Assembly: GCF_024700885.2 (NCBI RefSeq)
Contig: NZ_CP117014.1
Source of the DNA: Escherichia coli
Lineage (GTDB): Bacteria > Pseudomonadota > Gammaproteobacteria > Enterobacterales > Enterobacteriaceae
Reading direction: 5' to 3' (one strand)
Length of the DNA stretch: 64,000 nt
The first letter of the stretch is position 1; every line of letters begins with the position of its first letter. The notes beneath the pieces are model-generated. The model was not told the origin of the DNA, made no database searches, and was given only the letters and a program-made list of their open reading frames with translations. Shown here piece by piece: positions 9,899-57,573 of this stretch. Position numbers and translations under genes: made by a program.

Positions 9899-10705
9899 CT
9901 ATTGTTCCTTTTTGGTGTTCTTTTGGAGCGCATCGATAACGCCTTGTGGCATGATTAAACTGATTGCCGGACTCATTACTGCATCATCCAGTAGAGAACC
10001 AGTTAACGTGATGGCGACAGCGTTTTCTAAACCTTTGGTTGCCTGAGTGGTTGACGTTTTAATGCGACCTGTAAGGGCTACGACACTCTCACTTGCTGAG
10101 TTAATTTCGGAGAGTAAAACTTCGGCGGCTGTCACTGCTTCCCGTAAAGCATCAATTTCATCCTGAGTAATGACTGGAGCCTGAGCGCCCCCAGTACCAC
10201 CCTGTCCACCATTGCTATCACCACCACCAGCACTTCCGGCAGCTTCTATTTTTGCGTTAATGGCGTTCATGGCGGTTTTCAGAGCATCAAGTTTTAGCGC
10301 CGTCAATGCGTCCGTTAGAGATTGCGGAATGGAAACATTCCCCATCCCCTCAACAAGGGCGAAAGCAGGTATGGGGGTCAGCTCGTTACCTTTTACGTAG
10401 CATTCCCAGCCAATCTTCATCTGTAACAGCTCTGATGGCTTGGTGTATGGGGAAAGAGAATCAGCCAGTAATGAAGACGCTTTGCTGGCCTCATTTAGCT
10501 GTTCAGAAAAGCCAAGCAATTGAGTAGTCCAGGCCGAAACAGAATCAGGATAGGTTTTATCGGCGTGAACTATTCCCTGTATGGCGCTGGCGAGTGATGA
10601 GGCTTTTACAGACGCTGCCCGGCTTATGGTTATAGATTCTGGTGTAGAGATACCGGCATCTGACAGAATTTTGAAGGCTTTAACTTCACCTATTGAATCA
10701 AGCAT
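9899..10705 (-). CDS. Hypothetical tail-associated protein (268 aa; start MLDSIGEV overlapping PAAR stop as TAATG)
   Basis: Translational coupling to upstream PAAR-like gene; Ala/Ser/Gly-rich. Confidence 0.35.
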   Translation of the reverse strand: MLDSIGEVKAFKILSDAGISTPESITISRAASVKASSLASAIQGIVHADKTYPDSVSAWTTQLLGFSEQLNEASKASSLLADSLSPYTKPSELLQMKIGWECYVKGNELTPIPAFALVEGMGNVSIPQSLTDALTALKLDALKTAMNAINAKIEAAGSAGGGDSNGGQGGTGGAQAPVITQDEIDALREAVTAAEVLLSEINSASESVVALTGRIKTSTTQATKGLENAVAITLTGSLLDDAVMSPAISLIMPQGVIDALQKNTKKEQ

Positions 10706-10989
10706 TATGCAACCTGAAAAATATCCTCGCCGTTGGCGATAACAGAACCACAAGAAAGCGGATCGCCTACACAGACAACTCCCTTTCCACCTATCGAAAA
10801 CCATACTCGCGTCGATACAGCTGCCCCTGGATGTGCACTGTTACCGTCAGTGTGACTGGGAAACATGGCACCATCTACAACAATTGGCTTACCGTTAACG
10901 GTGAACCAGGGAACAGTTTCAGCTACCAGTCGCGGCGGAAATCCTCCGTGACCAGAACAAAGGGTGTCGCTGGTGGCTATTGCGCTCAT
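10705..10989 (-). CDS. PAAR-like spike tip protein
   Basis: 94 aa with HGG and GDPLSCG-type motifs characteristic of PAAR repeat proteins. Confidence 0.5.
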   Translation of the reverse strand: MSAIATSDTLCSGHGGFPPRLVAETVPWFTVNGKPIVVDGAMFPSHTDGNSAHPGAAVSTRVWFSIGGKGVVCVGDPLSCGSVIANGEDIFQVA

Positions 10990-11069
10990 TCTTCACCTCC
11001 TGGTTATCCTCCTATTGTCATCACTTTGTTATTTCGTCATTCAAACTGAGAGTAAAATTTCGGAATATT

Positions 11070-11231
11070 TTTGTATTCTCAATTCATCCTCAAATAAATC
11101 TCACTGTCAGACCATCATTCATTGGGTGATTAAGATATTCTCAAAATGAACTCAATAATCACTCTTTATTATCTCTTTTGGTGTGGATTTTTGGGTGCTT
11201 CTCTTTTAAAATTGCATTTTGATTCTCAAAT
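11070..11231. repeat. parC-like centromere: ~5 copies of (A/T)TTCTCAA(A/T) upstream of parM
   Basis: Repeats read at ~11075, 11087, 11136, 11150, 11221; located directly upstream of the ParM gene as in type II partition loci. Confidence 0.45.
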
Positions 11232-12607: not shown

Positions 12608-12730
12608 TGCCTTAATGGTGTCTAATTAGTGTTGAACTGGCACCAGTTAGGTGCTGTTATGGTGCAATTTTGTATCTGGTTCCAATTTAGGGCTGATTTC
12701 GTGTTAAATAGGATGCAATATAAGGTGTAT
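12608..12730. repeat. Centromere-like boxes (GGTGCAATT / GGTTCCAATT / GGATGCAAT) upstream of the ParA-like gene
   Basis: Related 9-11 bp boxes at ~12616, 12637, 12660, 12677, 12710; a similar set recurs downstream at 13790-13885. Confidence 0.4.
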
Positions 12731-13789: not shown

Positions 13790-13885
13790 TTAGAACTTAA
13801 AAAGTCTTGAACCAAAGGTGCACCAATACACCACTAATTTGGTGCACCTTTACATCCTTTTTGGTTCCAATTGTGTACCATTTGT
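13790..13885. repeat. Second set of centromere-like boxes downstream of ParG-like gene
   Basis: GGTGCACCAAT, TTGGTGCACC, GGTTCCAATT, GTGTACCATT at ~13818-13883. Confidence 0.4.
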
Positions 13886-31148: not shown

Positions 31149-31363
31149 CAGTGCGCCTCCACGCAGTTCATCGGCAGATTCCAGTAATTGAGGATCTCCA
31201 TCGCATCAAGAGTGAAGCGAGCAGCAAAAATGCAGGGTTCTTCGGGAAGGTATGAGCGCGCCTCTGCTTCGGTAGCAGCCATGACGCAGATATACAGGTG
31301 TTTTTGGCAGGAATAGAAACGCCAGATAAATTCAGAATGAGTTGGGGTAGGGATAGTAGCCAT
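31148..31363 (-). CDS. Small protein (71 aa) overlapping antirepressor start; Icd-position gene
   Basis: ATG with AAGGAGG RBS; stop overlaps antirepressor start. Confidence 0.4.
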   Translation of the reverse strand: MATIPTPTHSEFIWRFYSCQKHLYICVMAATEAEARSYLPEEPCIFAARFTLDAMEILNYWNLPMNCVEAH

Positions 31364-31548
31364 ATTGGCAGCCTCCTTTGACTAAGTTAAGGAGCTACCG
31401 CGTGAGGTTCCAATCTCAATGGCGGTAGCACTGACTGGGTTGGAACTACCGGCGTCAAAGGGAACCGGCCTGCCTTTCGGCAGCCCAGCCAGCACTACCA
31501 TTGATCTCTGAGCTAAACGCTACGTATGGCTGTGCGATGGCATGACAC

Positions 31549-31569
31549 AAAAAAGACGCTTTCGGCGTC
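31549..31569 (-). terminator. Rho-independent terminator (minus strand)
   Basis: GACGC-tttcg-GCGTC with A6 on plus = U6 on minus. Confidence 0.5.
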
Positions 31570-31674
31570 TGTGTCGCCTTTGACATTATCCGGGGTTCCA
31601 ATCCCGGCACCCGTTTTTCTAAGGTGCCGTAGAAATATACCCCACGATAATGCTAGGGCGCAACAGTCAGTATT

Positions 31675-31842
31675 TTATGCTTTGGCGGATTTCTTCCGGG
31701 CTTGCTTGCAGGCGTAGGCCATTGCTTTAACTTTCACTTCATCCAGCTTCCCGGTGATCACTTCTTTTCCGAGAGTGACAAACCAGTCATAGCAACCGCC
31801 AGTGATGTTCTGGATTTGAAAGTTGAGGTAGCGAACAGTCAT
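31675..31842 (-). CDS. Small basic protein (55 aa), below track cutoff
   Basis: ATG preceded by GGGGG; MTVRYLNFQIQNITGGCYDWF...KQARKKSAKA; followed by terminator. Confidence 0.3.
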   Translation of the reverse strand: MTVRYLNFQIQNITGGCYDWFVTLGKEVITGKLDEVKVKAMAYACKQARKKSAKA

Positions 31843-32173: not shown

Positions 32174-32752
32174 CTAATTTATCGATTCAATCGCCATCTG
32201 ATACAACGTCATTTCATCGGCATTGTGCCGTATGAAATCTGCTTTTCCGCCTATTTTTCCATCAGCATGAACAGGGACCAGCCAGGGATATTGTTCTCGG
32301 ACCTCGGCTGGCGCTGCGTACTGGTGGTGCCATTTACACAAAGGGAGGACATATTTATGCGCGTTCTCTGCCGTTCTCCCGAAGATATGGTGCAGGGATA
32401 CCACTGGGCTATGTTGCCCGTGAATATGGCAGGCAATGCAGGGGAGAGTACCTATAGCGGTCTGTATCCGGCGTTCATCGGCTGTGAGTGATCTGCCTTT
32501 CAGGCCGCGTGACGTGCGTGTTTTTTTGGGCGGAGCGGATACAGCTTTATCTTTTCTCCGCTGTTCATATTGCTTTGCTTTTTCATTTTTCTTTTGCCGA
32601 TATTCAGGCGATGCGGCCTTTTCTCTCGCTCGCTGCTGCTGGCGTTGAGCTTGTTGAAGGCGCTTTGCCCTTTGTTCCTCTCGCCAGGCCGGGTCAGCCA
32701 ATTTTTGCATGGCTTTTTGTCTCTGTTTCTCCCAATAACTCTGTTTCTGCAT
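32174..32752 (-). CDS. HNH-family endonuclease with long basic disordered N-terminus (P1 Ref-like)
   Basis: ~90 aa K/R/Q-rich N-terminus then CIACHIHG...LHHIF...PLCKWHHQ zinc/HNH motif; motif copies on both flanks. Confidence 0.5.
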   Translation of the reverse strand: MQKQSYWEKQRQKAMQKLADPAWREEQRAKRLQQAQRQQQRAREKAASPEYRQKKNEKAKQYEQRRKDKAVSAPPKKTRTSRGLKGRSLTADERRIQTAIGTLPCIACHIHGQHSPVVSLHHIFGRTAENAHKYVLPLCKWHHQYAAPAEVREQYPWLVPVHADGKIGGKADFIRHNADEMTLYQMAIESIN

Positions 32753-44890: not shown

Positions 44891-45270
44891 TGAGGCATAT
44901 ATCACCGGAAGAACTTATTGCGCTTCATGATGCGAATATAAGCCGCTACGGCGGCCTGCCGGGAATGTCAGATCCGGGTAGGGCAGAGGCCATTATCGGG
45001 AGAGTTCAGGCCAGAGTTGCCTACGAAGAGATCACCGACCTTTTCGAAGTCTCCGCCACCTACCTGGTGGCTACGGCGAGAGGGCATATATTCAATGATG
45101 CCAATAAGCGTACCGCGCTAAACAGTGCGCTGCTATTTCTACGCCGTAACGGTATACAGGTATATGATGATCCCGTGCTGGTGGAGCTTGCAGTGGGGGC
45201 TGCAACTGGTGAAATCCCCGTATCTTCAGTAGCGAAAAAACTACGTGAACTATATGGTTCCAATATTTGA
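44890..45270 (+). CDS. doc: Doc toxin (Fic-fold kinase)
   Basis: 126 aa with HIFNDANKR Fic motif; P1 Doc-like. Confidence 0.85.
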
Positions 45271-56278: not shown

Positions 56279-56354
56279 TGGTGGCCCCTACCGGACTTGA
56301 ACCGGTGACCGTGCGATTATGAGTCGCCCGCTCTAACCACTGAGCTAAAGGGCC
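56279..56354 (-). tRNA. tRNA with CAU anticodon (Ile2/Met-type)
   Basis: Reverse complement gives 76-nt cloverleaf ending CCA, anticodon loop CTCATAA; very similar to E. coli ileX from memory. Confidence 0.8.
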
Positions 56355-56783
56355 AGATTACTGTTAATTACGCTTACGCTTTTTGCCAGAACCGCGTAAG
56401 GCTTTTGCCGCTTGCTCTACCCCGTATGCAACCACCAGCAGAAACAATAATGTCCACTCCGGGTTTTTATCGGCAAACGCCCAAAAATCCATCACTTGCA
56501 GCCACCTTTTAAGACAAAACGCCATTGCTGTTAGGTTGCGGTGCCGGGCGCCTCCCGGTGACGTTAACCAGTTAACAATTAACGCCGGATCACTTATGGA
56601 TTCTCGTTACGCCAGTAAAAAGACCACCTTTACTGTTTTAACTGTTCCGCGTGCGCTTAGCCGCATTCACCGCAATGGTAAGAGCATTTGGCTGACTGGG
56701 CGGCGATGACGCCTGTACGCATTTGGTGATCCGGTTCTGCTTCCGGCATTCGCTTAATTAGCCAAATACCCTTAATGTTGCAC

Positions 56784-56870
56784 TGGCGGAGAGTAATGGA
56801 ATCGAACCATCATCGCTTGCGCAATGGGACGGTTTTCAAGACCGCTTGAGCACCATGCTCCCTACTCTCC
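56784..56870 (-). tRNA. tRNA-Ser (UGA), type II with long variable arm
   Basis: 87 nt, acceptor GGAGAGT/ACTCTCC, anticodon stem GCGGT/ACCGT, loop CTTGAAA, T-loop TTCGATT, 3' GCCA. Confidence 0.7.
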
Positions 56871-57324
56871 CGTTATTGTGGCGACCGGTGCTGATCTCCG
56901 GCTTGCGGTTATTTCAGACTCTCACGGGCGTTTAATTGCCCCGCCGAACAGCTCTTTTCCGCAATAGCTGCAATGTCTTTCGCGCATCAGCCTGCGCATT
57001 CACCACAATGTTGAGAACACTGGTTGTCACGCTGCAACGCAACATTTATTCGTAGATTGGGATATGACCCCGTTACGCCAGTGTTCTCAACGTTGTAGTG
57101 CCGGTTACGGTTCCGGCCAGACCTCTTCCTCAACGGGGTGTTCTCCATACGGACTACCGTTTATTGGTCGTTCCTGCGGTTTATGTTGTGAAGCCAGATG
57201 CTTATCTTCTGGTTGCTTCAAAGAGCTGCACTTCATCACAACGGTAAGAGCATTTATGGCTCGCATCGCGGGAAAAAGCCCACGGTAGAGAGTCGAACTC
57301 TACAAATGCTCTTACCTGTTGTGT

Positions 57325-57400
57325 TGGTGCCGGTTAACGGGATCGAACCGCTGACCATTCGCTTACAAAGCGACTGCTCTACCAACTGAGCTAAACCGGC
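57325..57400 (-). tRNA. tRNA-Thr (UGU)
   Basis: 76 nt, acceptor GCCGGTT/AACCGGC, D-arm GCTCAGTTGGTAGAGC, loop TTTGTAA, T-loop TTCGATC, CCA. Confidence 0.8.
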
Positions 57401-57404
57401 AATT

Positions 57405-57491
57405 TGGTGGGGAGTGATGGAGTCGAACCACCCGAGTCGCAATGACAGTAGATTTACAGTCTACCCCGCTACCCCTACGGACTAACTCCCC
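57405..57491 (-). tRNA. tRNA-Tyr (GUA), type II
   Basis: 87 nt, acceptor GGGGAGT/ACTCCCC, anticodon stem GTAGA/TCTAC, loop CTGTAAA, CCA. Confidence 0.75.
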
Positions 57492-57496
57492 TAAAT

Positions 57497-57573
57497 TGGC
57501 GATGGTGGGTGGATTCGAACCACCTACCGAAAGCTTAGAAGGCTGCTGTTCTATCCTACTGAGCTACACCATC
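57497..57573 (-). tRNA. tRNA-Arg (UCU)-like
   Basis: 77 nt, acceptor GATGGTG/CACCATC, loop CTTCTAA as in E. coli argU, T-arm GGTGG-TTCGAAT-CCACC, CCA; one mismatch in anticodon stem. Confidence 0.6.

Follow-up and report, generated by a model that had tools for sequence, protein, structure and literature searches.

A C4-class antisense RNA module of the immI type upstream of the icd–antirepressor operon of a D6-like plasmid prophage

Introduction

Antisense RNAs of the C4 class are released from the leaders of the operons that they control by RNase P, which acts at the 5′ end and frees a stable RNA of ∼77–80 nt, and they repress the downstream genes in trans and confer immunity. Leaders of the isrK/seqA type accumulate as short, Hfq-associated small RNAs. 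In phage P1, the c4 RNA reportedly pairs with the target sequences a2 and b2 and blocks the translation of icd, which is needed for ant expression, and in satellite phage P4 the CI RNA is said to enhance termination in vitro at t1, a site located after seqA, and to regulate its own production.

As far as it is set out in the annotation of the P1 genome (GenBank AF234172) and in a published summary, P1 control involves pairing of c4 with both a2 and b2, which blocks the icd translation required for ant expression. The P4 mechanism is summarized in PMC4825925 as the processing of CI RNA from the leader, followed by its pairing with seqA and seqC, which results in premature termination. In the Salmonella prophage Gifsy-1, an ∼80-nt RNA is processed from read-through isrK transcripts, pairing in cis between the leader and the C4-like RNA has been proven with the compensatory mutants G28A/C162U and G31A/C159U, and the short IsrK RNA supplied in trans activates translation 139-fold (PMC4825925). 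The arrangement has been named the IsrK-C4 immunity system, exemplified by seqA and CI RNA of P4 and with relatives in P1, P7, and N15 (PMC3632133, PMC4825925). For the plasmid pYU39_89, an ImmI-related region with homologues of the antisense RNA c4, icd, and the antirepressor has been published, and a second c4-icd copy has been reported for D6-like plasmids (PMC6799933).

The locus described here is an ordinary member of this described and curated RNA family, already known for D6-like plasmid prophages. It is best read as an immI-type module in which a C4-class antisense RNA would keep an icd–antirepressor operon off, a reading that is assigned a probability of roughly 0.88. The original prediction of c4-like antisense control of this operon was borne out by two Rfam matches above their gathering scores, by an order of elements like that of P1 and by co-variation over 47 alleles, each of which is considered below.

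Organization of the Locus

The window, by which is meant the whole 64-kb stretch of DNA analyzed, is at this locus 95.5% identical to Escherichia phage D6 (MF356679), 99% identical to ∼92-kb Escherichia coli plasmids and ∼96% identical to Salmonella plasmids that include CP011430 (published as pYU39_89; PMC6799933), and its a and b blocks differ from those of D6 at six sites. No second c4-icd copy was detected in the window by local tblastn and blastn. All of the leader features and both genes belong to a minus-strand RNA, of which the interval studied constitutes the operon 5′ leader, and are as follows.

31634–31663, minus: putative sigma-70 promoter (−35 TTGCGC at 31663–31658, 18-nt spacer, −10 TATATT at 31639–31634)
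31549–31627, minus: leader RNA of the isrK / P4 seqA / c4-a1b1 type, comprising hairpin 1, hairpin 2, b1 and the intrinsic terminator (RF01394)
31627–31606, minus: leader hairpin 1
31595–31601, minus: a1 target, UUGGAAC, exact complement of a′, in the loop of leader hairpin 2
31577–31584, minus: b1 target, GUCAAAGG, exact complement of b′
31570–31548, minus: intrinsic terminator, AGACGC-CGAAA-GCGUCU followed by six U residues (terminator scan and part of the isrK match)
31418–31505, minus: C4 antisense RNA gene (RF01695; minimum free energy fold; stem covariation)
31454–31461, minus: b′ antisense block, CCUUUGAC, a loop sequence of the second C4 hairpin
31440–31446, minus: a′ antisense block, GUUCCAA, in a single-stranded C4 junction
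31407–31413, minus: a2 target, UUGGAAC, exact complement of a′, next to C4 on its 3′ side; a small GAG/CUC hairpin carries it in its loop
31394–31401, minus: GCGGUAGC, partner of the C4 stem 3′ strand (31429–31422) in an alternative helix enclosing a2; exact complement, conserved
31375–31382, minus: b2 target, GUCAAAGG, exact complement of b′, with a 4-nt overlap with the icd Shine-Dalgarno sequence AAGGAGG
31363–31148, minus: icd-like gene, 71 aa (NF033153)
31148–30222, minus: antirepressor gene, 308 aa, with an N-terminal Rha domain (phrog_63, Pfam PF09669)

The order of elements is therefore a1-b1-(terminator)-C4-a2-b2-icd-ant. In the original prediction the region had been taken as equivalent in layout to that of P1, and this was correct for the a blocks, while the b set, the terminator, the overlap of b2 with the Shine-Dalgarno sequence and the minus-strand orientation had gone unnoticed.

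The 71-aa gene and the overlapping Rha-type antirepressor that had been recognized downstream of the leader were both confirmed. The former matches the phage_ICD_like model (NF033153) with 49.5 bits (cut-off 25), and its product is 63% identical to P1 Icd (E = 5e-28); the latter matches phrog_63, “anti-repressor Ant” (E = 3.2e-64), and its N-terminus matches the Pfam domain Phage_pRha (PF09669; E = 3.2e-6). The icd AUG is at 31363, preceded by the Shine-Dalgarno sequence AAGGAGG at 31378–31372 (minus), and in the sequence TGATG the icd stop codon and the antirepressor start codon share one base. As in immI of the P1 type, an icd homologue thus follows directly after b2 and its reading frame overlaps that of the antirepressor. 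The antirepressor itself is a Rha-domain Ant rather than a homologue of P1 Ant1/Ant2, BLASTP against P1 Ant1 returning no similarity (E = 0.27), which counts against the preferred reading; the module works like immI and its cargo is a different antirepressor. A search for the P1 C1 operator ATTGCTCTAATAAATTT with up to three mismatches gave no matches in the 64-kb window, promoter included, and this also counts against that reading, although the pattern searched for was of the P1 type and an operator specific to D6 may be used instead.

Leader RNA and Terminator

When the entire window was searched against Rfam with the curated thresholds, isrK (RF01394) matched 31627–31549 (minus) with 62.7 bits against a gathering score of 50 (E = 4.8e-11). 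With the threshold relaxed, c4-a1b1 (RF03163, “a1, b1 targets of C4 antisense RNA”; 22.4 bits against a gathering score of 46.7, E = 0.0019) gave a sub-threshold match to hairpins 1 and 2 of this isrK-matched leader as well. Since isrK scores above and c4-a1b1 below its gathering score, the leader belongs to the isrK subtype and not to the P1 subtype. Among eleven reference loci, isrK precedes C4 in D6, RCS47, P4, phiP27, and the Stx phages, and c4-a1b1 precedes it in P1, P7, and 813R1; one Klebsiella phage matches both leader models and the P1-like 673R5 matches neither above threshold. Because C4 is preceded by either isrK or c4-a1b1, the two models describe one element.

The leader carries a1 in the 8-nt loop of its second hairpin. 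Its 3′ end, upstream of C4, is a Rho-independent terminator, the counterpart of P4 t1 and of the IsrK terminator. Transcription would probably start near G31627, to judge from a putative sigma-70 promoter that was read off the sequence, stops 7 nt short of where the isrK model begins and has a promoter-like counterpart at equal distance in relatives. A consensus promoter scan missed this promoter, the −35 element being too weak, which is a point against the preferred reading. By eye, the terminator hairpin and T-run are found in every row of an alignment of 48 allele representatives except one (L014), with an atypical form in another (L066); an automated terminator detector, which under-counts, found it in 38 of the 48 rows, and the terminator helix is 90% paired in the alignment. 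The predicted fold of the leader forms the terminator hairpin even without C4, which likewise weighs against the preferred reading. A C4-dependent antiterminator was also considered: with the end of b1, a weak 4-bp hairpin (GGCG/CGCC) can form in the nascent leader. The full leader still folds into the terminator, so that this speaks neither for nor against such an element.

The C4 Antisense RNA and Its Target Sites

The C4 antisense RNA model (RF01695), whose family includes P1 c4, P4 CI and N15 CA, matches 31505–31418 (minus) with 77.1 bits against a gathering score of 45 (E = 2.4e-13), and the match covers model positions 1–87 in full. Structure prediction and covariance had been suggested as a check on the original prediction, and both agree with it: folded alone, C4 has a minimum free energy of −46.5 kcal/mol (z = −5.0) and adopts the structure of the family model, and a′ and b′ co-vary with both target sets. 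The fold is tRNA-like: a long closing stem encloses two hairpins, and the RNA ends in an RCC tail (3′ end …CUACCGCC). Across the 48 aligned allele representatives, pairing in the three C4 stems is 100%, with 14 covarying pairs among them. RCC tails are used by RNase P substrates. By homology to the annotated 77-nt c4 of P1, the mature RNA is predicted to extend from ∼31499 to ∼31421 (79 nt); that a small RNA with such ends would be produced by processing is suggested by the P1 annotation and by STnc1160 of Gifsy-1.

Two blocks are exposed in this fold. The a′ block has an unpaired probability of at least 0.99 at all seven of its positions, and b′ one of 0.86–1.0 at six of eight, with 0.21 and 0.38 at the remaining two. 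Both are complementary to a pair of targets situated upstream and downstream of C4 in the same transcript, and the complementarity is exact at each of the four sites. The allele of the window is UUGGAAC/GUUCCAA for a and GUCAAAGG/CCUUUGAC for b; on the plus strand, a repeat search detected the latter as two copies of CCTTTGAC (31375–31382 and 31577–31584) and the complementary GTCAAAGG at 31454–31461.

The repeats on which the original prediction had been based correspond to the a set. GGTTCCAATC occurs exactly twice in the 64 kb, at 31406–31415 and 31594–31603 as had been claimed (0.12 copies expected; 0 of 100 shuffles reach two), and the copies represent the a1 and a2 targets. The complementary TTGGAAC reflects a′ of C4, being its complement on the plus strand, and it was present as predicted but one nucleotide away from the position given (TTGGAAC at 31440–31446 and TTGGAACT at 31440–31447, not 31441–31448). 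The further pair GCTACCGC (31394–31401) and GCGGTAGC (31422–31429) is, as had been noticed, an exact 8-nt inverted pair, and it is considered below.

A shorter motif of the repeat, GGTTCCAAT, is found five times in the window (0.5 expected), with extra copies at 12678, 13863, and 45256. The two copies in the par region had been reported one position too low and tentatively linked to centromere-like boxes. Such a link does not hold up, and the par boxes were rejected as C4 targets: none of the three extra copies has a b-block nearby, and in a comparison with D6 that covered the two par-region copies only, both were identical despite the different a-block of D6.

Covariation Across Relatives

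The conserved C4 core, with the a′ and b′ positions left free, retrieved 120 loci from IMG/VR; together with the reference loci there were 125 usable loci, representing 47 distinct (a′,b′) alleles built from nine a-types and 24 b-types. Exact complementarity to the cognate block is seen in 43 of the 47 alleles for the target a1, in 37 for b1, in all 47 for a2 and in 41 for b2, and non-cognate combinations of block and target match in no more than 2.5% of cases.

The pairing and covariation figures were obtained from the alignment of 48 allele representatives. The a1:a′ helix is paired in 97.3% of cells, with five of its seven pairs changed on both sides, and a′:a2 in 99.2% and 95.8% of cells; for b1:b′ and b′:b2 the values are 92.6% and 92.4%, with seven of eight pairs covarying in each. 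Overall, the intermolecular helices are 92–99% paired with 5–7 covarying pairs each, compared with only 35–48% pairing in slid controls, and no shuffle reached the observed covariation score. In most of the 48 representatives, the 3′ end of b2 runs into a GGAG-type Shine-Dalgarno sequence. The complementary elements, whose lack of conservation had been named as the finding that would speak against antisense control, are thus clearly conserved, and they covary in 47 alleles.

Inspection by eye of the window and the eleven reference loci gave the same picture of coherent three-site block changes. Phage D6 (a, UUGAGAC/GUCUCAA; b, GCAAAAGG/CCUUUUGC) differs from the window in all six blocks, compensatorily, and RCS47 combines the a-type of D6 with the b-type of the window; the leaders of the three are at least 93.8% identical, with different a and b blocks that are coherently changed at three sites. 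On the D6-like scaffold alone (leader identity of at least 88%), two a-types and two b-types occur in every one of their four combinations, each with matched targets. Matched block sets of their own are carried by P1, P7, 813R1, P4, phiP27, the Stx phages and one Klebsiella phage. Specificity resides in the a and b blocks, and since the window differs from D6 at both, heteroimmunity, i.e. no cross-repression between the two, would be expected at immI.

Comparison with P1, P4, and Gifsy-1

The immI region of P1 and P7 (c4 RNA-icd-ant1/2; GenBank AF234172) has the same order as the window, a1, b1, c4, a2, b2, icd, ant, and resembles it in a C4 of the same Rfam family, an Icd that in P1 is 63% identical, a b2 sited at the icd ribosome site and overlapping icd and ant reading frames. 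The heteroimmune a and b blocks of P1, P7, and 813R1 show three-site covariation, as in the relatives of the window. The window differs from P1 in its isrK/seqA-type leader, whose terminator is strong and canonical (the c4-a1b1 model scores 22 bits), in a Rha-domain antirepressor unrelated to Ant1/2, in the lack of a P1 C1 operator and in its a and b sequences.

P4 (seqA-t1-CI RNA (seqB)-seqC) has both Rfam families, ordered as in the window, with 72.6% identity to it by blastn over the C4-to-a2/b2 part, an intrinsic terminator right after the first target, and a conserved “AGGAGGCUGCCAUCAUGGCUAC” start region of the downstream ORF. Unlike the window, it controls replication and helper-exploitation genes instead of an antirepressor, has a longer spacer between leader and CI RNA, and has transcription termination as its established output. 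The isrK-orf45/STnc1160-anrP region of Gifsy-1 shares with the window an IsrK-type leader and terminator, a processed C4-like RNA (here predicted) and an antirepressor gene, but has no icd. A translated ORF, coupled to anrP, overlaps the C4-like RNA there, IsrK in its short form works as an activator, and the output is an AntQ antiterminator cascade (PMC4825925).

Proposed Mechanism of Repression

Transcription from the promoter at ∼31663–31634 (minus) would produce a leader with a1 and b1 and then reach the intrinsic terminator. Transcripts that read through would contain the tRNA-like C4, which would be cut out of the leader, by homology through RNase P cleavage at the 5′ end and trimming at the 3′ end, to give an RNA of ∼79 nt. 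Its a′ and b′ blocks would then pair with a2 and b2 downstream, and because b2 overlaps the icd Shine-Dalgarno sequence, this pairing would keep ribosomes off icd; the antirepressor, whose start overlaps the icd stop, would be neither translated nor, through polarity, fully transcribed. Pairing of a′ and b′ with a1 and b1 on nascent leaders would favor termination at 31548, so that C4 and read-through would be auto-limited as in P4, and the terminated leader may act as a C4 decoy. Processing, translational block, polarity and assisted termination are modeled here on P1, P4, and Gifsy-1, and C4-assisted termination is the least secure of the steps, because the folding of the leader gives no sign that the terminator needs C4.

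Other Explanations of the Locus

The most substantial of the alternatives, though one judged to have distinctly less than an even chance, is that the module operates purely in the mode of P4 and N15, i.e. by premature termination, at the leader terminator via a1/b1 and at downstream sites via a2/b2, with occlusion of icd secondary or irrelevant. CI RNA is reported to enhance termination at t1 in vitro, which would fit such a mode. Its P4 precedent is the termination mechanism as summarized in PMC4825925, and the leader has a canonical intrinsic terminator and falls, like that of P4, into the isrK/seqA type rather than the c4-a1b1 type of P1; aligned with the cI region of P4, the C4 region is 72.6% identical. 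Against it, the window has a b2 that overlaps the Shine-Dalgarno sequence, and in most of the 48 representatives the b2 3′ end runs into a GGAG-type one; the locus shares with P1 an icd gene to which the ant start is coupled; and the terminator scan found none between C4 and icd. The two modes are, moreover, compatible with each other.

A further layer of control like that of IsrK in Gifsy-1 is rather doubtful. The leader RNA (31627–31549) would in this case be stable and act in trans, titrating C4 or opening a silent, self-paired read-through transcript, and would therefore be an activator of icd-ant, with the ratio of leader to C4 setting the switch. In its favor, the isrK model matches above its gathering score, a1:a′ and b1:b′ covary, and the minimum free energy fold of the 276-nt leader pairs a1/b1 with a′/b′ in cis over 23 bp, resembling the verified “structure A” of Gifsy-1. 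Against it, the antirepressor of Gifsy-1 is directly coupled to a translated ORF lying over the C4-like RNA, whereas in the window, as in P1, a separate icd with its own b2-covered Shine-Dalgarno sequence lies in between.

That the region codes for a small protein, the 39-aa “Ash family protein” (31501..31382, minus), with the repeats being incidental, is very improbable. The P4 cI/ash ORF has been shown to act as RNA. The reading frame is annotated by PGAP as a CDS in a 99.8%-identical plasmid, its translation matches Pfam Phage_ASH (E = 1.6e-7), and orf45, its counterpart in Gifsy-1, is translated (PMC4825925). However, covariation at the locus preserves base pairs and not codons, no Shine-Dalgarno sequence precedes the ATG, no NCBIfam model matches the 39-aa ORF, and in Gifsy-1 orf45 it is the nucleotides that are conserved and the amino acids that vary (PMC4825925). 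Finally, chance matches in a leader devoid of any regulatory role, with which only the lack of enrichment of the 7-mer GTTCCAA in the window (12 copies against 9.9 expected) would agree, are refuted by the 10-mer present twice against 0.12 expected, the two Rfam families above threshold and the three-way covariation in 47 alleles, and the likelihood of this explanation is negligible.

An Alternative Helix in the Read-Through Leader

The locus also contains a conserved alternative structure. The segment GCGGUAGC, which sits between a2 and b2, is the exact complement of the 3′ strand of the C4 stem, and the helix that the two can form encloses a2, with an inner GAG/CUC stem that presents a2 in a loop. 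This helix is paired in 99.7% of cells with five of eight pairs covarying, RNAalifold returns it as the consensus for the segment, and it is visible in P1 and P7 too. It is mutually exclusive with the tRNA-like fold, displacing the terminal part of the C4 closing stem and taking up part of the RCC tail as well as the stem 3′ strand. The C4 stem with which it competes is rich in G:U pairs, as would be expected of a strand with two partners.

In the 276-nt read-through leader, the minimum free energy structure is not the C4 fold but a self-paired alternative that combines this helix with the 23-bp cis pairing of a1/b1 with a′/b′, and this was counted against the preferred reading. No description of the helix was found in the literature covered, which consisted of sources other than the primary P1 and P4 papers. 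A tentative proposal, for which the odds are rather long, is that the read-through precursor constitutes a conformational switch not described for P1-type immI, and that the a/b code defines a predictable network of cross-immunity. The alternative helix and the cis pairing of a1/b1 with a′/b′ would then set the fate of each transcript, either as C4 repressor or as icd-ant mRNA. The code, a combinatorial one of nine a-types by 24 b-types, is common to D6-like plasmids, P4-like satellites, and lambdoid prophages including those of the Stx type.

Implications

For a locus of an already described family, the value that remains lies in the correction of annotation, in immunity typing from the a and b blocks and in the conserved alternative helix. 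Public records lack or mis-annotate the C4 RNA: the D6 GenBank record has no RNA feature here and instead places “orf84” on the opposite strand, and RefSeq/PGAP places a 39-aa “ash family protein” CDS over C4 (31501..31382, minus, in the 99.8%-identical plasmid). Both annotations can be corrected. The D6-like scaffold with all four a/b combinations is a clean natural example of three-site compensatory RNA–RNA evolution, and an immunity type, which in the window differs from that of D6, can be taken straight from the a and b blocks. If the tentative proposal above is true, the shared a/b code could define a cross-immunity network between unrelated elements that reside in one cell.

Alternative Helix and Annotation of the C4 Gene

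The stem of the antisense RNA C4 can give up its 3′ strand to a second structure, in which that strand pairs with a segment between target blocks a2 and b2.

31394-31429, minus strand: alternative helix, conserved (columns 307-349 of alignment A1, which holds 48 allele representatives)

This helix is 99.7% paired with five covarying pairs, and it and the tRNA-like fold of C4 are mutually exclusive. The C4 RNA gene is itself overlain by a protein-coding annotation from RefSeq/PGAP.

31382-31501, minus strand: 'ash family protein' CDS, 39 aa

The translation of this CDS matches Pfam family Phage_ASH (PF10554; E = 1.6e-7), a protein family that seems to have been founded on a translated RNA gene, originating from the old P4 cI/ash ORF. 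In the record of Escherichia phage D6, orf84 was called at the C4 site on the opposite strand instead.

A viral contig carries two C4 modules approximately 650 bp apart (locus L045; IMGVR_UViG_2703718850_000006, 10222-11160), which have the b-type CCGUAUGC in common and differ in a-type (GUUCCAA vs. CUGCGAA), each being accompanied by its own matched targets.

Repeat Copies Elsewhere in the Window

A repeat of the C4 module also has copies at a distance from it.

12678-12687 and 13863-13872: GGTTCCAATT, one copy on each side of the parA-like/orf61 partition genes
45256-45264: GGTTCCAAT, third copy

The original prediction had noted the par-region occurrences as a possible coincidence, and a link of the copies at 12678, 13863, and 45256 to C4 was rejected; they are unrelated to it. 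Both GGTTCCAATT copies at the partition genes lie in AT-rich intergenic DNA, are retained in D6, and may represent partition-site or other DNA-level boxes.

Neighboring Genes and the C1 Operator

31675-31842, minus strand: conserved 55-aa ORF, function not assigned (phrog_7786, E = 1e-42)
32174-32752, minus strand: Ref-like RecA-dependent nuclease (phrog_2321, E = 7e-82)
56282-56354, 57328-57400, 57408-57491, and 57500-57573, minus strand: cluster of four tRNA genes (span 56282-57573)

The 55-aa ORF is located directly upstream of the operon promoter, with the nuclease gene further out. D6-like plasmid prophages have been described as carrying a tRNA region, with which the four-tRNA cluster is consistent (PMC6799933). 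These elements have also been reported to encode a C1 homologue (PMC6799933). The P1 C1 operator consensus ATTGCTCTAATAAATTT has no match with three or fewer mismatches anywhere in the 64-kb window, and the operator specificity of the D6-like C1 presumably differs from the P1 consensus.

The immI Module in P1-Like Phages

Escherichia phage RCS47 (locus L002; FO818745, 103405-103868), a P1-like phage classified in Punavirus, possesses a leader and C4 of the D6 type that share 95.5% identity with the window. The icd to which they are joined is more divergent (66.7% identity), and the module lies between pacB on one side and an ant gene, which adjoins c1, on the other. The leader and C4 of JL22, also a P1-like phage, are likewise of the D6 type (93.2% identity to the window). 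The RNA module of the immI immunity operon has here been swapped in mosaic fashion between D6-like and P1-like phage-plasmids.
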